From the NCBI GenBank assembly GCA_031459765.1, contig JAVKHY010000001.1, forward strand, positions 468,156-532,155: 64,000 nt of DNA. Reading direction: 5' to 3'. The position numbers and the translations under genes are program-made. This DNA comes from Candidatus Kaftiobacterium secundum (lineage in GTDB: Bacteria > Sysuimicrobiota > Sysuimicrobiia > Sysuimicrobiales > Kaftiobacteriaceae). The notes beneath the pieces are model-generated. The model saw only the letters and a program-made list of their open reading frames with translations, was not told where the DNA came from and did not search any database. Below, one piece after another: positions 7,692 to 46,563 of the stretch (positions are counted from its first letter, which is position 1; each line of letters begins with the position of its first letter).

Positions 7692-7817
7692 TGTAGAGCC
7701 TTCGACCAGGGGAAAGAGGATAGGGGAGCAAAAGAATCCAGAAACTCTGCAATAACCTATTCCCGTTTCCGCGTCTGTAGTCTGTGAAAGCGGGTCGTCT
7801 GTGTACCCGGTGTCAAG

Positions 7818-8387
7818 ATGAGCGATCCCTTCGAGCAGATGGTCCGGCCGCACCTGGACTTCCTCTACGGTCTTGCCGTGCGGTTGTGCGGCGACCGCAC
7901 CGCGGCGGAGGATCTGGTGCAGGATGCGCTGCTCCGCGCTTTCCGGGCTTTCCCGGGGCTGCGCAACCGGGAGCGCCCGAGACTGTGGCTGACGCGGGTG
8001 CTGACCTCGGCCTTCCACGATCGGGTGCGCGCGCAGGGCGCCGACCTCATGGACCGCGAGGCGGACCGGGAGTTCGACCTGTTCGACCGCATCACGGAAG
8101 AGGATCCGTTCCCGTATTCGGATCGGGTGCACCTGGACTTCCTCGATCTCTTCGACGACGCGAAGATCCTGGAGGTGCTCCAGGCACTGCATCCCGACCT
8201 GCGCGCCGCCTTGATCCTGGCCTATGTCTACGGGTTCACGGCGAAGGAGATCGGCGAGATTCTGGAGCGGCCGCTGGGGACGGTTCTGTCCTGGCTGCAC
8301 CGGGCGCGGAAGCAACTGGAGCGGGAGCTGTGGGAGTACGCGGCCGCCAGGCACCTGTTGACGTCACGGACGGAGGCGCGGGTGTGA
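7818..8387 (+). CDS. ECF (sigma-70 family group 4) RNA polymerase sigma factor
   Basis: region 2 (LVQDALLRAF) and region 4 (LILAYVYGFTAKEIGEILERPLGTVLSWLHRARKQL) signatures; stop overlaps the start of the anti-sigma gene (GTGA). Confidence 0.85.
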   Translation: MSDPFEQMVRPHLDFLYGLAVRLCGDRTAAEDLVQDALLRAFRAFPGLRNRERPRLWLTRVLTSAFHDRVRAQGADLMDREADREFDLFDRITEEDPFPYSDRVHLDFLDLFDDAKILEVLQALHPDLRAALILAYVYGFTAKEIGEILERPLGTVLSWLHRARKQLERELWEYAAARHLLTSRTEARV

Positions 8388-8626
8388 TCAGCTGCAAGGA
8401 AGCCGTCTCACGGCTGTGGACGTACCTCGACCGCAACCTCGGGCGCGTCCAGGAGCACGAGCTGGAAGAGCACCTGGGACTGTGCCGGCACTGCTGCGGG
8501 GAACTGGAGTTCGCGCGGCAGATCAGGGAGCGCCTGCGGGCCACGGCCGCGGGGAGCGAAATCCCGCCCCAGACGCGCGAGCGCCTGGAGACCTTCGTCA
8601 GGCGCCTGGGCGATGGAGGAGCGTGA
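8384..8626 (+). CDS. zinc-finger (ZAS, RsrA-like) anti-sigma factor
   Basis: 80 aa; N-terminal Cys plus HLGLCRHCC (HxxxCxxC) motif; 4-nt overlap with the sigma factor gene. Confidence 0.8.
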   Translation: MISCKEAVSRLWTYLDRNLGRVQEHELEEHLGLCRHCCGELEFARQIRERLRATAAGSEIPPQTRERLETFVRRLGDGGA

Positions 8627-8631
8627 CCGCG

Positions 8632-9453
8632 ATGGAGACCCACCTGCACCCTCCGGCACCGCGGACCGACGATCTGCTGGGTCAGGCGGAAATCACCGCT
8701 TCGGTGCAGCAGGCCTACCGGGCCGTGATCGGGACCCGGACCGAGGTCGCCGCCCGCCTCTATGACCCGGCCCAACTCGCCCAACTACCCCGGGGCGCCA
8801 TCGAGCAGGCGTTGGGGGTGGGGAATCCGGTACGCGCCGCCGGGTTGCGCCCGGGCGAGGTGGTGATCGATCTCGGCTCCGGCGGGGGCATCGACACCAT
8901 CCTGGCCGCCCGGGCCGTCGCTCCCGGCGGGGAGGCGATTGGTCTGGACATCCTCCCGGAGATGCTGGAGATTGCGGCCCGCAACGCCGCGGAAGCCGGC
9001 GTCACCAACGTGCGGTGGCTGCAGGGCCAGATGGAGGCCATCCCGCTGCCCGACGAGAGCGTGGACGTCATCATCAGCAACGGTGTCGTCAACCTCTCGC
9101 CGCGCAAGTCGCGCGTGTTCGCCGAGATGTTTCGGATCCTGCGGCCGGGCGGGCGCTTCTCCGTGGCGGACATCGTCCTGGACGAGGATCTCCCGCCGCA
9201 GATTGCCACGCATCCAGCGGCCTGGGCGGGCTGAATTTCGGGGGCCCTGGCGGAGCGTGTCTTCGTCAGCAAACTGGTCAAGATCGGGTTCGTCGAGGTG
9301 GCGCGGGGTGAGGAGTTGCCCTTCGGCGTGGAGGAGTGCAGCCAGTACCCATTGTTCACGCCGGAGCTGATCGCGCTGATGCGGCGGCTCATCCCGCCGG
9401 AGAAGCAGGCCGCGGTGGCGCGGTCGGTGATCTTCACGGCGCGGAAGCCGTAG
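8632..9453 (+). CDS. ArsM/UbiE-like SAM-dependent methyltransferase with an in-frame TGA (9232..9234) at the conserved WAG-C-ISGAL cysteine position; selenoprotein candidate or interrupted gene
   Basis: SAM motif VIDLGSGGGID; ...DIVLDEDLPPQIATHPAAWAG-TGA-ISGALAERVFVSKLVKIGF... stays in frame with homology continuing to the stop at 9453. Confidence 0.6.
9247..9269 (+). other. SECIS-like hairpin 13 nt downstream of the in-frame UGA
   Basis: CUGGCGGAG-CGUGU-CUUCGUCAG: 9-bp stem (two G.U pairs) with a GU-containing apical loop; loop G lies about 23 nt after the UGA. Confidence 0.35.
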
Positions 9454-9464
9454 GAGGGCTGGTC

Positions 9465-10049
9465 ATGACCTGGGTGCGGACACTGGACACGGATGAGGTG
9501 ACCGGCCGGCTGCGGCAGGTGTACGAGGCCGAGGAGGCCCGGCTCGGGTTCGTGATGGAGGCCACCAAAGCATTGTCAGCCAGGCCGGCTCTGGCCGAGG
9601 CCTTCGACGCCTTCACCGCCGCCGTGAAGGAGGCCTCGGCGCTGACGCCCCAGGAGCGGCGGCTGATCAGCCTGCTCGTGGCCCACCGGTTGAAGTCCAC
9701 GTACTGCGTGCTGGTGTATGCCACGGACGTCGAGCGCGACCTCGGCGGGCTGGACCGCCTGCGGGCGGTCCTGGAGGACTACCGCCGCGCCGGCCTCAGC
9801 GTGCGCGACGTCGCCATCCTGGATTACGCGATCGCCGCGGCGGCGGGCCATCCCACCGAGGAGCACGTCGCCCGTCTGCGCGAACTGGGTCTCGACGACG
9901 GGGCCATCATCGATGTCGCGGTGTGGGCCAACCTCCGCGCCTTCCGCAGCCGGATCTACGAGGCGCTGGGGACGCAAACCGACCCGTTCTTCCTGGAGCA
10001 GCAGGATCTCGTCGAAGCGGTGACGCTGCCGGAGCGGCAGCGCATCTGA
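9465..10049 (+). CDS. carboxymuconolactone decarboxylase (AhpD-like) family protein
   Basis: 194 aa; AhpD/CMD-like helical pattern; GGAGGG RBS 6 nt upstream of the ATG; track ORF trimmed to MTWVRT. Confidence 0.7.
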   Translation: MTWVRTLDTDEVTGRLRQVYEAEEARLGFVMEATKALSARPALAEAFDAFTAAVKEASALTPQERRLISLLVAHRLKSTYCVLVYATDVERDLGGLDRLRAVLEDYRRAGLSVRDVAILDYAIAAAAGHPTEEHVARLRELGLDDGAIIDVAVWANLRAFRSRIYEALGTQTDPFFLEQQDLVEAVTLPERQRI

Positions 10050-10137: not shown

Positions 10138-10704
10138 ATGAAGTCCACGACTCCCGCGTCACTGAACGGCGTGAACGTGCAGCAACTGGTCGACACCATC
10201 AACGCCGTCAAGTCCAACCCCGATATCGCCCGCTTCCGCTTCCGGGCGGAAACGGACTGGATCGAGGGCGGGCACTCGCGCACGAAGATCCAGGGGTTCT
10301 TTGGGGCCGGGCAGGAGGACACGTCCCGCGCCCGCCCGTTCGTCCTCGACGGCGACGAGCCGCCGGTGCTCCTCGGCACGAACGCCGGTCCCAACGCCGT
10401 GGAGGCGGTGCTCCACGCGCTGGCGTCGTGCCTGGCCGTCGGCTTCGTCTACAATGCGGCGGCCCGCGGGATCAAGGTCGAGAGCCTCGGCTTCCGGCTG
10501 GAGGGCGACCTCGACCTGCACGGGTTCCTGGGGCTGTCCGAGACGGTGCGCCCCGGCTATCAGAACATCAAAGTGACGTACCGGGTGAAGGCGGATGCGC
10601 CCCGCGAGCAGATTGTCGAACTGTGCAACTACGTGCAGAAGACATCGCCGGTGCTGGACATCATCCGCAACCCGGTTCCCGTCACCGTCGCCCTCGAGTC
10701 GTGA
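10138..10704 (+). CDS. OsmC/Ohr family peroxiredoxin-like protein
   Basis: OsmC-family pattern incl. conserved Cys regions (ALASCLAVGF, IVELCNYV); AGGAGGG RBS. Confidence 0.85.
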   Translation: MKSTTPASLNGVNVQQLVDTINAVKSNPDIARFRFRAETDWIEGGHSRTKIQGFFGAGQEDTSRARPFVLDGDEPPVLLGTNAGPNAVEAVLHALASCLAVGFVYNAAARGIKVESLGFRLEGDLDLHGFLGLSETVRPGYQNIKVTYRVKADAPREQIVELCNYVQKTSPVLDIIRNPVPVTVALES

Positions 10705-10823: not shown

Positions 10824-11228
10824 ATGGATCCGAAGTCGCAGGCGCAGGTCGGCCCGGCAGGGAGTCGGAAGATGGCGAGCATCGAGGGGAAGAATTTCGA
10901 CACACCGGATGAGACGCGCCGCCCCTTTGCCAAGGGGCGGGTCGAGGTCATACGCGTCGGAGGGCTGACCTTCTACCGCGAAACCCTGGAGCCGGGCTGG
11001 CGCTGGTCGGAGCACGTCAGGCCCGTCGTGGGCGGAACGAGCTGCCAGCGCTACCACGTCAAGATCTTCCTGAGGGGACGCCAGCGGATCCGCATGGACG
11101 ACGGGACCGAGATGGAGTTCGGGCCGGGGGATGTCGCCGTCATGCATCCCGGCCACGATGCCTGGGTCGTCGGCGACGAGCCCAACGTGCTGATCGAACT
11201 GGCGGACGCGGTGAAATCGGCTCCGTAG
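10824..11228 (+). CDS. cupin domain protein
   Basis: cupin-2 motifs (GWRWSEHV..., MHPGHDAWVVGDEP); RBS AGGAAAGG. Confidence 0.7.
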   Translation: MDPKSQAQVGPAGSRKMASIEGKNFDTPDETRRPFAKGRVEVIRVGGLTFYRETLEPGWRWSEHVRPVVGGTSCQRYHVKIFLRGRQRIRMDDGTEMEFGPGDVAVMHPGHDAWVVGDEPNVLIELADAVKSAP

Positions 11229-37781: not shown

Positions 37782-37856
37782 TCCGCGGTAGCTCAACGGT
37801 AGAGCGTCCGGCTGTTAACCGGAGGGTTGTAGGTTCGAATCCTACCCGCGGAGCCA
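37782..37856 (+). tRNA. tRNA-Asn (anticodon GUU)
   Basis: cloverleaf: acceptor UCCGCGG/CCGCGGA, D-arm GCUC..GAGC, anticodon loop CUGUUAA, T-arm GUAGG-UUCGAAU-CCUAC, G73, encoded CCA. Confidence 0.9.
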
Positions 37857-39254: not shown

Positions 39255-39521
39255 ATGCGGAAGAGTCGCTTCACCGAGGAGCAGATCATCCTCATCCTGC
39301 GGGAGGCCGAGGCGGGCGCCGCGGTCACGGAGCTCTGCCGCCGGCACGGGATAACCAAGCAGACCTTCTACCGCTGGAAGGAGAAGTATAGCGGTCTGAG
39401 CGTCGACGAGGCGCGGCGGCTGCGGCAGCTGGAGGATGAGAACCGGCGGCTGAAGCATCTCGTCGCCGATCTCACGCTGGACAATCAGGCCCTGCGGACG
39501 GTGCTCGCAAAAAAGCCCTAA
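39255..39521 (+). CDS. IS3-family transposase OrfA (HTH)
   Basis: MRKSRFTEEQIILILREAEAGAAVTELCRRHGITKQTFYRWK... typical OrfA; leucine-zipper-like C-terminus. Confidence 0.85.
   Translation: MRKSRFTEEQIILILREAEAGAAVTELCRRHGITKQTFYRWKEKYSGLSVDEARRLRQLEDENRRLKHLVADLTLDNQALRTVLAKKP
39509..39515 (+). other. programmed -1 ribosomal frameshift heptamer A_AAA_AAG
   Basis: A AAA AAG in the orfA zero frame just before the orfA stop (39519..39521). Confidence 0.7.
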
Positions 39522-40369
39522 GGCCCGCCGCGCGGCGAGAGGCCGCCCAGATCGTCCGGCAGGAGCTTGGCCTCTCGGAACGCCGCGTGTGCGGGCTGCT
39601 GGGTCTGGCGCGATCGACGGCGCGCTACCGCAGCCGGCGCGGCCAACCCGAAGTGCTCGATCGCCTGCGGATGCTCGCCGCGCGCTGGCCGCGGTACGGT
39701 TATCGCCGCCTGCACATCGAGTTGCGGCGGGAGGGGATGCGGATTAATCACAAGCGGGTGTATCGCCTCTACCGGCTCCAGGGGCTCGCGCTGCAACGCC
39801 GAACGCGCAAGCGCGCGGCCGGGCTGCGGGGGCTGCCGCTCGGCGTGCCGAGCCGTCGCAACCAGCGCTGGTCGATGGACTTCCTCAGCGATGCCCTGGC
39901 CAGCGGGCGCCGGTTCCGGGTGCTGATCGTCCTAGACGACGGCATCCGGAAGGCGCTGGCGCTCGAAGTAGACACGTCGCTGCCGGGGCGGCGGGTGGTG
40001 CAGGTCCTGGAGCGATTGATTGCGGCGTACGGGAAACCGGAGCTCATGGTGATCGATAATGGGCCGGAGTTTGCCGGACGTCTCTTAGATCAGTGGGCGT
40101 ACGAGCACGGGATCAAGCTCCACTTCATCGAGCCAGGCAAGCCGGTCCAGAACGCCTATGTGGAGAGCTTCGCCGGAAAGCTACGCGATGAGTGCTTGAA
40201 CGGGCACTGGTTCACCACCCTGGCCGATGCCCGGCAGACCATCGAGGCCTGGCGGCGGGAGTACAATGAGATCCGCCCGCACAGCGCGTTGGGCGATCTC
40301 CCGCCAGAGGAGTTCGCACGGTTGGTGGAACAAACAGAGCTCGCTCCCCAGGCTGCAGTCACATTATGA
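39509..40369 (+). CDS. IS3-family transposase OrfB (DDE/rve integrase), made as OrfAB by -1 frameshift
   Basis: rve-domain pattern (WSMDF...VLIVLDDGIRKAL...HSALGDLPPEEF); frame is -1 relative to orfA. Confidence 0.8.
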   Translation, partial: KKALRPAARREAAQIVRQELGLSERRVCGLLGLARSTARYRSRRGQPEVLDRLRMLAARWPRYGYRRLHIELRREGMRINHKRVYRLYRLQGLALQRRTRKRAAGLRGLPLGVPSRRNQRWSMDFLSDALASGRRFRVLIVLDDGIRKALALEVDTSLPGRRVVQVLERLIAAYGKPELMVIDNGPEFAGRLLDQWAYEHGIKLHFIEPGKPVQNAYVESFAGKLRDECLNGHWFTTLADARQTIEAWRREYNEIRPHSALGDLPPEEFARLVEQTELAPQAAVTL

Positions 40370-40942
40370 CTGGACCAGAAAAGGGGGGCAGGTCATATTC
40401 GCCCTGGGTGGACTTAGGATGCGTTGCATCACTACCACACCGCTTTCTTTGACACCAAACTTCTTAGGGGGTTGTTTTTCTATGATATCGAAGCCAACAC
40501 GTTGAAAGAATCGAAGGGCCTGCTGGTTGTGCTCCAAAACGCCGATCCGAATCCTTCGGGCACCCTGGCTCGCTGCCCACTTCTCAAACGCAGAGAATAC
40601 CTCGGAACCTACGCCCTGCCGCCTGCGTGACGGATGTAACAACATTAACCCGATGCTCCATTCGCCAGCCGCCGGATAATCCCGGATTACATCAAGAACA
40701 CCTGCCAGAATGTCATCAGCCTCAAATAGACCAATCAGAAGTTTGTCTTCGTAGTGCTTTCCCTCGGGCAATGCGATGAATGTGCTATGCGCTTCCGAAG
40801 GTCCAGGGGGCAATCCGAACTCCAGTTCAAAGTACTCTTGGGATTGCTCGAAGAGTTCTTGCAGTGCGGGAACATCCTGCTCCGCGATTATTGCCGCGGA
40901 CCAGGCCCCTGTTCGAAATAACTTGTTCCGGCGAGCGGTCAT
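40364..40942 (-). CDS. GNAT family N-acetyltransferase; 3' end runs into the IS3 right end
   Basis: GNAT motif RRQGVGSEVFSAFEKWAASQGARRI; the last about 10 codons are encoded by the IS right inverted repeat. Confidence 0.7.
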   Translation of the reverse strand: MTARRNKLFRTGAWSAAIIAEQDVPALQELFEQSQEYFELEFGLPPGPSEAHSTFIALPEGKHYEDKLLIGLFEADDILAGVLDVIRDYPAAGEWSIGLMLLHPSRRRQGVGSEVFSAFEKWAASQGARRIRIGVLEHNQQALRFFQRVGFDIIEKQPPKKFGVKESGVVVMQRILSPPRANMTCPPFLVQS

Positions 40943-40991
40943 GAAATTGCAGCGAGCGCTACCGAACGCGCTGCATCATCTCTGTGAAGGA

Positions 40992-41201
40992 TTACCTTGT
41001 CTTATCCTCGACATCGCCGCTGAGCACAAGTAGGGTTCTGGACAGAGCCGCAAGAATCGGAATGACTTCGCCACGTACGGCATTCCGGGAATGCGACGGG
41101 TCGAAGAAATTGTCCGCCATGATGTCCTGGATGTCAGCAATCGTGTGCTGACCATCACATAGTCTCCAAATCAAGTAGGTGGTCGTACTCATACCAACCA
41201 T
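40992..41201 (-). CDS. PqqD-like peptide chaperone / RiPP recognition element (RRE)
   Basis: YLIWRLCDGQHTIADIQDIMADNF...RGEVIPILAALSRTLLVL matches the PqqD/RRE pattern; track ORF trimmed to MVGMST. Confidence 0.55.
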   Translation of the reverse strand: MVGMSTTTYLIWRLCDGQHTIADIQDIMADNFFDPSHSRNAVRGEVIPILAALSRTLLVLSGDVEDKTR

Positions 41202-41320
41202 GCCGCGGATCCCTGGAGAATAGCAGATTGCAGCTCCCCACTCTGGGAGAAACCGACACCGGACCGCTGGATTCCTGCGATATGTCTCCTGTTCTCGCTG
41301 TCTAGCCCCTTTCACAGATT

Positions 41321-42334
41321 CTATCCTCCCTGGACCTTCCAGCACAGTGGGTCGGGTGCGTCCCAGCATCCCGTTACATAGAACGCCGATGCTCGGCAAC
41401 CTCCTCCGCAGGCGGCGAACAGCTGACACCCATCGCACTCACCTCTAGGCCTCACGTGGCGTAGTGACGTCCATGCGGGAGAATCCCACATTTCAAGCAG
41501 TGGTTTGGTCCAAATATTCCCATAATAGCATACTTCCCTGAGATAAGAGCAGCCAATGACATTCCCGCAGGCATCGACCGTACATGCTTGCGTGCAGCAG
41601 TTGTGGATATTGGGGTAGTATCGATGGGCCACAGTGATGCCCTCAACCGACTTCAGACTCTCAAGGGCATCACGAAGTTCTACTTTGGTGGGGGAAATCT
41701 CAGCCCAATTCCGTTTCGCCCCGCCTACGTAGTAGACGCCTAGCAGATTCACTCTCCTTACTCCAAGGTTCCTTGCAAACTCTATGTAATCCTGAAGCAG
41801 CAGGATGTTCTGACGTATGACCGATGTGTAGAGAATTGTCTCAACCCCAGCTGATCGTAGATACTCTATGCCGCGAATCGTTGCCGCAAAACTCCCGGGC
41901 GTTCTCGTGACCGCCTCATGGGACGTCTGCGTAGGACCGTGTAAAGCAACAAATACCGCACTGACTCCGAGTTGATAGGGGCGGCGAGCTGCCCGGCTGT
42001 CGAGCAGCGACGCATTGGTGGATATATCTACAGAAAGTTGGCGTGTTGCATGGTCCAAGATCTCAAACAAGTCGGGTCTGGAGAAAGGTTCTCCTCCCTC
42101 AATGAGTAGGCCGAGGAACTGGCTCTCCACCAGGTAATCAATAAATGAGGTGATTTCTGCTGTCGAAAGCTCGCCTGGGGCTGGTTCGGCACTACATCGG
42201 TAACAATGAAGGCAGCGCAGATTGCAGGCAGCCGTGACCTCGAGGGTACACGAGATTGGTCTTGTTGGTGGTTTCACTGGCTTACCCTCTCTATGGAGGT
42301 ACTCCCTTCTTGTAAACCGTGGGCGCGATGTCAT
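41321..42334 (-). CDS. radical SAM enzyme with C-terminal SPASM domain (peptide-modifying type)
   Basis: CNLRCLHCY (CxxxCxxC); Cys-rich C-terminus CTQACTVDACGNVIGCSY...CDGCQLFAACGGGCRASA; start uncertain. Confidence 0.75.
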   Translation of the reverse strand: MTSRPRFTRREYLHREGKPVKPPTRPISCTLEVTAACNLRCLHCYRCSAEPAPGELSTAEITSFIDYLVESQFLGLLIEGGEPFSRPDLFEILDHATRQLSVDISTNASLLDSRAARRPYQLGVSAVFVALHGPTQTSHEAVTRTPGSFAATIRGIEYLRSAGVETILYTSVIRQNILLLQDYIEFARNLGVRRVNLLGVYYVGGAKRNWAEISPTKVELRDALESLKSVEGITVAHRYYPNIHNCCTQACTVDACGNVIGCSYLREVCYYGNIWTKPLLEMWDSPAWTSLRHVRPRGECDGCQLFAACGGGCRASAFYVTGCWDAPDPLCWKVQGG

Positions 42335-43547
42335 AAGGCCACAGGGCGTGTCCCGCCAAGAACGCACCTAAGCTCAGGAGGCTAGCCACTGCAAATAGAG
42401 AGCGTGTGGGGAAGTATTGAGCTAGTGCGCCCCAGGTCATCATGCCAAGAACCTGTGCACTCTGGATCGCTAAGGTGCTAAACGCAAAGACACGTCCGCG
42501 CAGAATATCAGGTACCAGCCGCTGTAGGATTGTGGTAAGCAGGATTGCAGTGAGGGCGTTCCCGATACCGCCTACTGCCAGCATCGCGAGGACAGTCGCT
42601 AAGCTCACACTAGTAGCCACTCCCATTGTGGAAACGCCCAGGAGCAGCGATCCGCCCAAGAAGAGGCGTCGCCAACTCCAATGGTGGCCAACGCGCATCA
42701 GGAGGCCGGAGCCCACGACCATGCCGAGACCCCAGAAGGTGACCATCATGCCGAAAGCAAGCTCGGCGTTGGCAGAGATTTCGCGGGCGAAAACCGGCTC
42801 AAGAGCGTTCAACGCGGCGGCCCCGAGAATGGTGGCAGCCACGATCGTCACGGCTCCGAGCGCAACCTTCTGACCAATTAGGTAGTTGAAGCCGGCCAGC
42901 ATGTCTGAGTGAAAGGACTTGTCAAACTTCTCGACACCATTGGTGGGCAAGCCACGCATACGTATAGTGACAAGTAACAGTGCGGATATCAGGAACGAAA
43001 CGGCATCAACCACAAAGGCACCTCTGGCACCGACAAGCCCCAGCGCTATCCCGCCGACGGCGGGACCTGCTACCATCGCGCCGGTGTTTAAGCTCTGACG
43101 GAGCGAGTTGAATTTCAGCAACGATCTTTCGTCAACAAGATTTGGAAGGACCGCGGCGAGGGCTGGACCGAAGAACTGTGACACAGCACCGACTGAGAAC
43201 GCGGCCGCCAACAATAGCCACAACTCGTTTGTGAGCACCATGACTACAAGAAGTCCGGCTCGCACTAGATCGCTGATAATTAATATGTTCCGTCGATCGT
43301 AATAGTCTGCCACGACTCCGGCGAAGGGTGCCACGAGAATGGCCGGCAGTAGCTCGAAAAGCAAGGAAAAAGACGCGAGAATCGGTTGGCCAGTCCAGTC
43401 TAGTACCAGAAGCGGCAAGGCGATGTAAGCCAACCAGTCACCTATCTGCGACAGAAACTGACCCAGGAGGAGCCGAGCCAAATCCCCACGTATCTTACTC
43501 GCCCGTCGTCGTAGCGTGCCAAAATCAGGCGTCACAGGGTCACGCAT
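42291..43547 (-). CDS. MFS transporter (EntS-like exporter type)
   Basis: 12-TM MFS pattern; lower-GC codon usage. Confidence 0.75.
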   Translation of the reverse strand: MRDPVTPDFGTLRRRASKIRGDLARLLLGQFLSQIGDWLAYIALPLLVLDWTGQPILASFSLLFELLPAILVAPFAGVVADYYDRRNILIISDLVRAGLLVVMVLTNELWLLLAAAFSVGAVSQFFGPALAAVLPNLVDERSLLKFNSLRQSLNTGAMVAGPAVGGIALGLVGARGAFVVDAVSFLISALLLVTIRMRGLPTNGVEKFDKSFHSDMLAGFNYLIGQKVALGAVTIVAATILGAAALNALEPVFAREISANAELAFGMMVTFWGLGMVVGSGLLMRVGHHWSWRRLFLGGSLLLGVSTMGVATSVSLATVLAMLAVGGIGNALTAILLTTILQRLVPDILRGRVFAFSTLAIQSAQVLGMMTWGALAQYFPTRSLFAVASLLSLGAFLAGHALWPYDIAPTVYKKGVPP

Positions 43548-43563
43548 CTCAACAACCCAGGCG

Positions 43564-44853
43564 TCACGCGCCGGATTCCCCAATTTGAGGTACCCGCTGC
43601 ACAGTTCCCCAGGGAACGAAATACACTAAGCCACGATCCGACATCTGACGCAACATGAACGAAAACTCCGCGGCAGTCACCCCGGCTCGCCGCCAGAGTT
43701 CCGTCGAAAGCTCGTGAAGCGTAAGCCTTCCGTCAACGCTCAACCATATAAGTGCACCAGCGGCATTGAGGCGAAAAACCCGCTCCGTGTCAACGTCCAA
43801 TAGTACGAATGCCCCGGGGCGGACTCGCAGGTACACTACCCCCGGAGCTCGAACGGGAATCAACGAGACGTCTTCCTCAGGGTTGGCAGCAATATACGCG
43901 TTGCTCACGAACCCGCTACGACGCAACCGGCAAATGCTCCCTGCAATGTCAGCGTAAGGGTAAGGGAGAGCTACTAAATCAGCATCCCGGCGTGGAATCT
44001 GCTTCGTCCCAAAACTATGAGAGTATACGCGGTGCAAGACCGCGGCATCGACTCGCGAGAGCAATACGAGGTGTCGATACCCGACATGGTAAGCGACAGC
44101 AACCGGTCCTCTTGCGCCGCTCAGAGGATCCTCGGGCATGTCCCGGAGTTCGAACCATTTGTTCCCTTTCGGAATTTGGCGTGAAGGCTTAACCCCGGCC
44201 TCTTGATAACAGGAACGCAGGAAGTTCCACTCTTCCCAGCGCTCCTTGAACCCCAGGGTCCGCTTTAGGGGGACACGTCCCACTACTCTGTAGGCTTCAT
44301 CGATCAAATCCTGACCGACCCATCGCCTTAATATTTCCGCCGCGGTCTCCTGACTCAGCCCCTGCTCCACTTCGTATCTGCGCTCTGGGCTCAGCTCATC
44401 CTCGTCTGCAGGCGGAAGAATGTGAACACCGAAGCGCGCAGGATCCTGCGCGACGCGCGAAAGCACGTCCAACCGAAAGATACCCACCCCATTGGAGCAG
44501 TGCTGGTTTCCAAATTCGCGGGTCGTTAGCTTTGATATTTCGTCCAGGAAGGTAAGAGTCCGTTCTGCATCCTCGGCTGTTTCGCCGGGGAATCCCAGGA
44601 AACAGAATAAGTGATAACCAATGCCTCTTGCTAAGCATCGTTTCAGAACAGGAACTATGTCGGCAAGTTTGACCCCTTTGTCCATGAGATCAAGAACTCG
44701 TTGATTGTAGCTCTCCAACCCGAACTGGATGATTCGCATACCCGCTCGCGCTAACTGAGCAACCAAATCCTCGTCAAGGTTCGGGTTGAAGCGGGTCTCC
44801 CCGTACCACCGGAGCACAAGCGCCTGATCGAGAATACTGCAGGAGAAGCACAA
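43564..44853 (-). pseudogene. 5'-truncated radical SAM enzyme fragment with C-terminal PqqD-like RRE domain
   Basis: radical SAM C-terminal half (FGLESYNQRVLDLMDKG) and RRE-like tail (VFRLNAAGALIWLSVDGRLTLHELSTELWRRAG); frame closed by TAA at 44860..44862 so the Cys-triad N-terminus is absent. Confidence 0.6.

Positions 44854-44889: not shown

Positions 44890-46563
<1,674 letters not shown>

Follow-up and report, generated by a model that had tools for sequence, protein, structure and literature searches.

Is the stop codon within an ArsM-like methyltransferase gene the end of the protein, or is it read as selenocysteine (Sec)? The question arises in a stretch of 64,000 nucleotides from Candidatus Kaftiobacterium secundum (assembly GCA_031459765.1, contig JAVKHY010000001.1, positions 468,156 to 532,155 of the forward strand), which we call the window and whose own numbering we use here. 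At 8632..9453 on its forward strand lies a gene for a methyltransferase dependent on S-adenosylmethionine (SAM), interrupted by an in-frame TGA at 9232..9234. A preliminary description, made from the letters of the window, had proposed that this TGA stands where ArsM-type enzymes have a conserved cysteine and that the gene encodes a selenoprotein, the alternative being a pseudogene. We are highly confident that UGA 9232..9234 is a genuine selenocysteine codon served by a functional-looking selenocysteine insertion sequence (SECIS), and that the gene encodes one selenoprotein of 273 residues in which Sec is residue 201.

Translated from end to end, 8632..9453 reads METHLH...HPAAWAG*ISGALAERVFVSKL...FTARKP*, with the TGA as its sole internal stop. 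The part before the TGA comprises 200 residues and ends in ...HPAAWAG. Past the TGA the frame continues, as the preliminary description had stated, and runs through 72 more codons (ISGALAERVFVSKLVKIGFVEV...FTARKP) up to the stop TAG at 9451..9453. The sequence U-I-S-G (residues 201-204) would place Sec within a UxxG motif of the methyltransferase domain; the single ordinary cysteine of the protein is C236, in the motif EEC-x-QYPLF. Public gene calls divide this frame into a 'methyltransferase domain-containing protein' of 200 amino acids (8632..9234) and a hypothetical open reading frame (ORF) of 51 amino acids (9298..9453). The truncated 200-residue annotation is present in every public record that we examined, and the stray 51-residue ORF in two NCBI records of metagenome-assembled genomes (MAGs).

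A six-frame scan of the 64 kb, which called for GC contents of at least 0.82 at third codon positions and at most 0.58 at second codon positions on each side of a TGA, returned TGA 9232..9234 as the only one in the window with a strong coding signal in the same frame on both sides. Further recoded TGAs were sought with this coding signal in related loci; the matches look like neighboring genes lying in the same frame. Reassignment of TGA as a codon was likewise rejected, as TGA ends 15 of the 32 confident genes of the window, including the anti-sigma gene that stops 5 nt before the methyltransferase begins. The sequence comes from a MAG, and an error of sequencing or assembly at one base, the true codon being TGC or TGT, could explain the TGA. 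However, the identical 200-residue product ending at the TGA occurs on 13 contigs. At least four separate assemblies are among their sources, namely the NCBI MAGs GCA_031459255.1 and GCA_031459865.1 and Logan run assemblies (at least SRR27730043 and SRR27730041), so that the base call is not an artefact of reads or assembly. This settles the doubt about base support raised in the preliminary description and, as dozens of divergent relatives have the TGA too, the probability of such an error is negligible.

What do the relatives encode at this position? We compared 78 genome loci and 80 metagenome loci, together with loci obtained by exact protein look-up and the window itself. The preliminary description had left it to such orthologues to tell a Sec codon from a lesion, and in them the position holds a Cys codon or TGA: among 148 loci there are 49 with TGA, 88 with TGC and 11 with TGT, and none with anything else, so that a stop at this position is always TGA and never TAA or TAG. 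The TGA is kept in 34 distinct variants of a 69-nt segment, which come from Sysuimicrobiota (CSP1-3) of hot springs and sediments, at least 14 species-level genomes among them, and whose proteins are 70-93% identical. By this gene, the nearest named relatives are Candidatus Fervidifonticultor, Thermofontivivens and Tepidifontimicrobium, all members of the phylum Sysuimicrobiota, formerly CSP1-3; a contig that matches the window, JAVKIX010000010.1, belongs to a MAG that GenBank labels Armatimonadota. In all 14 genome sequences examined in full (13 loci from the genome collection plus the window), the frame is open for 72-78 codons past the TGA and has a conserved ARKP near or at the C-terminus. 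The ratio of non-synonymous to synonymous substitution rates (dN/dS; pairwise Nei-Gojobori) is 0.157 for the part upstream of the TGA (185 codons) and 0.173 for the 72 codons downstream of it.

These comparisons bear directly on the pseudogene alternative, according to which a TGC or TGT codon suffered a nonsense mutation to TGA and the frame downstream is decaying. The public annotation, with its 200-residue protein and separate 51-residue ORF, is what such a lesion would leave, and no Sec machinery was seen in the window. Against it, the same TGA persists in the 34 variants, whose divergence excludes that the loci are copies of one contaminated sequence; the 72 downstream codons contain neither stops nor frameshifts and evolve under the same constraint (dN/dS of 0.17) as those upstream; and the stop at this codon is TGA throughout, with no TAA or TAG. 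Orthologue comparison, selection past the TGA and the conserved hairpin described below together exclude the pseudogene that the preliminary description had kept as its alternative, and we leave it only the slightest probability.

Another possibility is that translation truly terminates at the UGA, giving a methyltransferase of 200 residues, and that the C-terminal part is initiated separately as a peptide, for instance at GTG 9298. Gene callers do report the ORF 9298..9453, and some truncated product is likely in any case, as insertion of Sec is usually inefficient. Nevertheless, the 21 codons from the TGA to GTG 9298, the first possible restart codon, are conserved in frame (dN/dS 0.27), and they hold the (I/L)SGAL motif that in all Cys-type homologues is contiguous with the catalytic cysteine. 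In a protein search, 77 of the best 120 homologue clusters have 193-203 amino acids, with coverage of 69-73% of the query; each of the 17 truncated homologues that we fetched ends in ...WAG, and full-length homologues read AAWAGC(L/V)(S/A)GAL. Across 14 full-length homologues of the Cys type, the cysteine at the Sec position is the sole invariant one; a second, equivalent to C236, is frequent, not universal. The Cys-type orthologues are single polypeptides, and a split would delete from the family its one invariant cysteine while giving the conserved SECIS-like hairpin no role. A split gene is thus very unlikely, and one continuous protein is the reading that we retain.

The distribution of the two forms suggests a history. 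From the sequences we infer that the Sec form arose from the Cys form, which occurs widely in Chloroflexota and Actinomycetota. The Sec-type clade has three Cys-type lineages nested within it, namely L013:2254 with L106:3574 (HR32-type), L163:2444 and L164:3604, and in a neighbor-joining tree the HR32-type Cys orthologue sits among Sec-type sequences. This nesting points to at least three reversions from Sec to Cys within the Sysuimicrobiota clade.

We asked whether the RNA that follows the UGA has the properties of a bacterial SECIS. The hairpin is located at 9247..9269 on the forward strand, as the preliminary description had drawn it: CUGGCGGAG (9247..9255) pairs with CUUCGUCAG (9261..9269) in a 9-bp stem that includes two G-U pairs, and the loop is CGUGU (9256..9260). 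By our count the stem starts 12 nt past the UGA and the loop is spaced 21 nt from it. According to the bacterial SECIS (bSECIS) model of Zhang and Gladyshev (2005), as summarized in PMC13188914, the loop has 3-9 nt with a G among its first two positions, usually followed by G or U, the stem has 4-16 bp, the distance from UGA to loop is 16-37 nt and the minimum free energy is -7.5 kcal/mol or lower. The hairpin agrees with the model in all four respects, having a 5-nt loop in which G is the second base and U follows, a stem of 8-9 bp, a spacing of 21 nt and, across all 34 variants, energies from -8.7 to -13.0 kcal/mol.

The hairpin also shows constraint on its nucleotides. RNAalifold recovers it as the consensus structure, and in the 34 variants 97.7% of cells are paired. 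Among 251 segments of eight codons along the gene, the one with the lowest synonymous diversity (0.06, the gene mean being 0.38) spans codons +5..+12 after the TGA and coincides exactly with the hairpin; over codons +1..+21 the synonymous rate (dS) is halved. The first three bases of the loop form an Arg codon, which is CGT in 33 of the 34 variants, a codon that accounts for 5.7% of the Arg codons of the window. Changes in the stem preserve pairing: one pair occurs as G-U, G-C or A-U and the closing pair as C-G, U-G or U-A, the latter being unpaired in seven variants. The peptide LSGALAERVF is unchanged in L163 and L164, two relatives of the Cys type, yet the hairpin codons have three synonymous changes in L163 and five in L164, and the hairpin is lost or weakened there (-4.6 kcal/mol in L163 and -3.7 kcal/mol in L164). 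Since these two keep the peptide yet lose the hairpin, the constraint on the nucleotides travels with the TGA and not with the peptide. The locus is in this sense a clean natural experiment: the peptide stays the same, and the RNA that encodes it has an invariant hairpin in the 34 Sec-type variants and a decayed one in two of three close Cys-type lineages.

Compared with the SECIS of the E. coli fdhF type, the predicted element in the window shares the position of the stem-loop, within the coding sequence just 3' of the UGA, and the small loop with G then U; in contrast, there is no sequence similarity and no bulged U is evident in the window hairpin. The minimal fdhF element starts 11 nt past its UGA, and the window hairpin 12 nt past.

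Two other ArsM-like genes with an in-frame TGA were observed among the related loci. In L163, a second methyltransferase paralogue (L163:3342..4091), annotated as two ORFs of 187 and 54 amino acids, follows the Cys-type sigma-linked methyltransferase and an AhpD-like gene; it reads HPTAWTG-U-IAGTLTEQVF, and its TGA at L163:3903 has a hairpin of its own over the same codons (CCGAAC-AGGU-GUUCGG, with G at loop position 2). The other gene (DLWTG-U-IAGALPCAGW) is found at L026:7861, on a contig of a genome labelled Actinomycetota, and on the identical metagenome contig L124:775, about 2 kb upstream of a Cys-type sigma-linked methyltransferase. Its hairpin, CCCUGC-CGUGC-GCAGGG, also with G at loop position 2, starts about 10 nt past the TGA, a few nucleotides closer than in the window, and the gene probably encodes another selenoprotein. 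The hairpins of L163:3903 and L026:7861 are unrelated in sequence to that of the window and lie at a comparable distance from the TGA.

Several results weigh against reading the UGA as Sec. The hairpin is intact in the HR32-type Cys orthologues (L013 and L106), so it is not strictly tied to the TGA; as their nearest relatives are of the Sec type, this would fit a recent reversion from Sec to Cys. Because the helix is nearly invariant (six of its nine pairs never vary), covariation in the 34 variants is not significant, and 74 of 500 shuffled alignments score at least as high as the real one. The folding energy of the UGA plus 54 nt is indistinguishable from that of shuffled sequences (z = -0.32) in a sequence of 69% GC. 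No SECIS or other relevant Rfam family was found in the window at the gathering threshold or in 9150..9350 at E <= 10. As for the machinery, ARAGORN found no tRNA-Sec in the 64-kb window and 17 loci, and tblastn found no selA, selB or selD in the window and about 1.2 Mb of related loci; this is a weak negative, as the E. coli probe sequences were unverified, and SelA, SelB and SelD gave a single match, to an unrelated GTPase. The 10 kb that adjoin the window on its upstream side contain no sel genes. Selenium is not mentioned in the paper that describes the phylum Sysuimicrobiota, and its supplements list neither selD, selA and selB nor their KEGG numbers. The long-term maintenance of a translated TGA suggests that the genome does possess the Sec machinery.

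Read-through could also be independent of selenium, if a near-cognate or suppressor tRNA (for Trp, Cys or Arg) decoded the UGA and the hairpin were a generic stimulator of read-through. That no Sec machinery was found in the window and the related loci and that the hairpin shows no significant covariation would both be compatible with this explanation. However, strict alternation between Cys and TGA at an active-site residue is the signature of Sec, as in the ArsM selenoproteins with UxxG; the hairpin has the four features of the bSECIS model, including a loop G-U kept by means of a rare codon; and TGA is the commonest ordinary stop of the window. We consider recoding of this kind highly improbable. 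Insertion of Sec accounts for the pairing of Sec with Cys, the purifying selection past the TGA and the SECIS-like hairpin, and these support the selenoprotein proposed in the preliminary description.

To which family does the protein belong? Pfam assigns it class I SAM-methyltransferase domains (Methyltransf_31, Methyltransf_25 and Methyltransf_11). When C stands in for the TGA, the NCBIfam model that matches best is arsenite methyltransferase (PRK11873/NF008823), at 237 bits under a cut-off of 263; three curated families of ArsM-type selenoproteins come next, each with a score far short of its cut-off. Among solved structures, those nearest in sequence are without exception ArsM or AS3MT (HMMER; E = 3.7e-32 to 5EVJ). 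The arsenite ligands of CmArsM are Cys72, Cys174 and Cys224, whose counterparts in human AS3MT are Cys61, Cys156 and Cys206 (PMC4211708). The HMMER alignment to ArsM structures puts the TGA on the third of these, Cys224 (YGECLGGAL in CmArsM, WAG-U-ISGAL in the window), the position at which the preliminary description had expected the conserved cysteine. The same alignment substantiates its remark that the other two are replaced: the window protein has Val (LGVGN) at Cys72 (YGCGS) and Gly (ISNGVVNL) at Cys174 (ISNCVCNL). All members of the subfamily that we inspected show the same pattern of loss.

A structural model gives the part encoded past the TGA a place in the fold. The AlphaFold model of a Cys orthologue (P0004) has a mean predicted local distance difference test score (pLDDT) of 85 and a predicted TM-score (pTM) of 0.85; residues 181-210, which include the Cys, are less confident, and the helix and strands after the Cys are confidently folded. 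Its best PDB matches by Foldseek extend over about 250 of the 274 residues and are CmArsM (6CX6 and 4FR0), CrArsM (5EVJ) and human AS3MT; TMq is 0.65-0.70 to 6CX6, 4FR0 and 5EVJ (0.69 to 6CX6/4FR0). Since the orthologue model folds in this segment and matches ArsM, the segment belongs to the fold and is not a spurious extension. Minimal known ArsM enzymes, such as BlArsM, need at least the pair Cys174/Cys224. As the other two arsenite-binding cysteines are absent from the window protein, which has Val and Gly instead, the enzyme is probably not a canonical arsenite methyltransferase.

In fact, Sec in the ArsM family is not new. Fomenko et al. (2007; Science 315:387) used a Sec/Cys pair in this family to arrive at the catalytic cysteines of mouse AS3MT, and a 2026 review (PMC13188914) lists arsenite methyltransferase (NF008823, UxxG, WP_011987699.1) among the experimentally verified selenoproteins. 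The window protein is like these known ArsM selenoproteins in its ArsM fold, in the single Sec of a U-x-x-G at the position of Cys206 of human AS3MT and Cys224 of CmArsM, in the pairing of Sec with Cys and in a SECIS located in the coding region directly downstream. It differs in scoring below the NF008823 cut-off, in having no equivalents of Cys72 and Cys174, in its phylum (Sysuimicrobiota) and in the location of its gene in a sigma/anti-sigma operon; WP_011987699.1 enters this comparison by its listing in the review only.

The review table also includes three families from Haft and Tolstoy (2025), double or triple selenoproteins in which the ArsM-type part is fused to another, and we compared them by NCBIfam scores and by what the table gives. 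The window protein reaches 183.8 bits against a cut-off of 510 for NF041537 (ArsM/AhpD-domain), 157.6 against 575 for NF041536 (ArsM/DUF2284) and 168.7 against 460 for NF047649 (methyltransferase/UXPK-star). All share with it an ArsM-like methyltransferase domain with Sec in UxxG, whereas the window gene encodes one domain, has one TGA and no C-terminal UXPK, and ends with ARKP followed by TAG. NF041537 fuses the ArsM-like part to an AhpD-type domain, and the window has an AhpD/CMD-like protein encoded by a separate gene 11 nt downstream; that protein is a Cys form, with no TGA and with S-x-x-C in place of C-x-x-U. We considered whether this neighbor could be the split counterpart of NF041537 and rejected the idea: it does not match that model, and the link is at the level of the superfamily only.

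From canonical ArsM and AS3MT (4FR0/6CX6, 5EVJ, 8XT7), with which it shares the SAM-binding motifs and the (I/L)-x-G-A-L after the Cys, the window protein differs in missing two of the three arsenite-binding cysteines and having Sec as the third. It also has no long C-terminal domain, with 273 amino acids against about 320-400 in the solved chains. The gene is therefore a newly recognized, mis-annotated selenoprotein of the ArsM family, a class that has itself been known since 2007.

The genes around the methyltransferase, all on the forward strand, suggest when it is made. An ECF (extracytoplasmic function) sigma factor of 189 amino acids, SigH/SigR-like and with Pfam Sigma70_r2 and Sigma70_r4 domains, is encoded at 7818..8387. 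It passes the general ECF model (TIGR02937 sigma70-ECF) with 77 bits over a cut-off of 42.9, and its best NCBIfam match, TIGR02947 SigH_actino, at 105 bits against 251.6, is below the equivalog level. The sigma stop overlaps the start of the next gene (GTGA), which encodes at 8384..8626 an RsrA-like zinc-binding anti-sigma factor (ZAS, zf-HC2) of 80 amino acids with the motif H-x3-C-x2-C (HLGLCRHC). Its Pfam zf-HC2 match is 28.6 bits over a cut-off of 22.2, and its match to TIGR03988 antisig_RsrA has E = 1.8e-12, with 47.2 bits under a cut-off of 62.5. The anti-sigma gene ends in an ordinary TGA, and the methyltransferase gene starts after the 5-nt gap already mentioned.

Downstream of the methyltransferase stop and an 11-nt gap, the AhpD/CMD-like 'peroxidase-related enzyme' (9465..10049, 194 amino acids) has an active-site region S-T-Y-C, a Pfam CMD match and an NCBIfam TIGR01926 score of 81.1 bits, just under the cut-off of 81.8. 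It is followed by a Cys-form OsmC-like protein (10138..10704, 188 amino acids), with 64 bits to Pfam OsmC and 57 bits, below cut-off, to the NCBIfam model OsmC-related (seleno)protein. The setting recognized in the preliminary description, an ECF sigma and anti-sigma pair with AhpD-like and OsmC neighbors, is thus borne out by Pfam and NCBIfam matches at these genes. A small cupin-domain protein of 118 amino acids (10872..11228) scores 25.4 bits to Pfam Cupin_3, just above the cut-off, and 24.8 bits, below cut-off, to AraC_binding_2; whether its gene belongs to the operon is uncertain.

Upstream of the sigma gene, at 7749..7775 and 43 nt before its start codon, lies an ECF-type promoter-like motif, GCAATAA-N16-CGTC, which occurs once in the window. 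Most related loci of the Sec type preserve the sequence GCAATAA...CGTC(T) in front of their sigma gene, and it is probably an autoregulated ECF promoter.

The order of the genes is conserved as well. The trio of sigma factor, zf-HC2 anti-sigma factor and ArsM-like methyltransferase (7818..9453 in the window) is kept in about 60 of the 78 genome loci. The labels of these genomes are Chloroflexota (Limnocylindria), Actinomycetota (the cultured Blastococcus deserti among them), Sysuimicrobiota and a small number of further phyla. The AhpD-like gene lies directly downstream in 11 of the 14 Sec-type genome loci and is absent from that place in distant Cys-type loci, and OsmC is usually transcribed divergently upstream in the Cys-type loci.

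The systems that come closest are the thiol-stress pairs SigR-RsrA and SigH-RshA of Actinobacteria. With these the window has in common an ECF sigma factor whose translation is coupled to that of a small cytoplasmic anti-sigma factor of the zf-HC2 type, with H-x3-C-x2-C; the genes downstream in the window, AhpD-like and OsmC, are of the antioxidant type. In contrast, the window pair scores below the equivalog cut-offs, and the methyltransferase as a fixed third gene is not a described feature there. The SigR promoter consensus is GGAAT-N18-GTT, from which GCAATAA-N16-CGTC differs. We found no paper in which an arsenite methyltransferase is linked with ECF or anti-sigma factors.

How would the protein be made and what could it do? 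When the ribosome arrives at the UGA, the hairpin 12 nt past it would act as a bacterial SECIS, its stem and CGUGU loop presenting G-U. SelB-GTP carrying Sec-tRNA(Sec) would bind the hairpin, so that Sec is inserted instead of termination by release factor 2, and translation would proceed through the folded C-terminal part to TAG 9451. By alignment, U201 would stand where CmArsM has Cys224 and human AS3MT has Cys206, a redox-active residue that binds the substrate, and the single selenol of U201 most likely binds or activates a soft, thiol-reactive substrate for methyl transfer. The methyltransferase appears as the third cistron of a tightly packed operon, after the SigH/R-like sigma factor and the RsrA-like anti-sigma factor and before the AhpD-like protein. 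As a conserved ECF-type promoter motif fronts the sigma/anti-sigma operon, expression is probably induced by thiol-oxidative or electrophile stress, a view that draws on homology and gene order. The enzyme would thus be a stress-induced methyltransferase with a single selenol, and its substrate is probably not arsenite.

A wider interpretation, which we put forward tentatively and regard as possible though not probable, is that the trio constitutes a conserved stress module whose ArsM-fold enzyme is an uncharacterized methyltransferase induced by redox stress. The enzyme would not act on arsenite, because only one catalytic Cys or Sec is retained, and the Sysuimicrobiota clade, from hot springs and other habitats, would have upgraded this catalytic residue to Sec. 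Its substrate might in that case be another soft nucleophile or thiol-reactive toxicant, for example selenide, persulfide, tellurite or antimonite species.

Elsewhere in the window, an island of low GC content (39255..44853; 55-56% against 69%) lies downstream of a tRNA-Asn gene (37782..37856). Its genes encode an IS3-type transposase pair, a GNAT acetyltransferase, a PqqD-like ORF, two radical-SAM proteins, one of which has a C-terminal PqqD domain, and a transporter of the major facilitator superfamily (MFS), and it looks like a cluster for a RiPP-like product (ribosomally synthesized and post-translationally modified peptide) on a mobile element. Adjoining the island is an ORF for a P-type ATPase (44950..46563, 537 amino acids) that begins at the E1-E2 actuator domain; it seems to have no N-terminal membrane and metal-binding part and may have been truncated by insertion of the island.

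The general picture of selenoprotein biology is unchanged by this gene. Reading its UGA as Sec corrects truncated annotations, including those of the 77 homologue clusters among the best 120, and it is the first indication that we have seen of selenocysteine use among members of the recently named phylum Sysuimicrobiota (CSP1-3). For the subfamily, the retention of one of the three arsenic-binding cysteines, together with a fixed place behind an ECF sigma and anti-sigma pair across phyla, points to an uncharacterized, stress-inducible methylation function.

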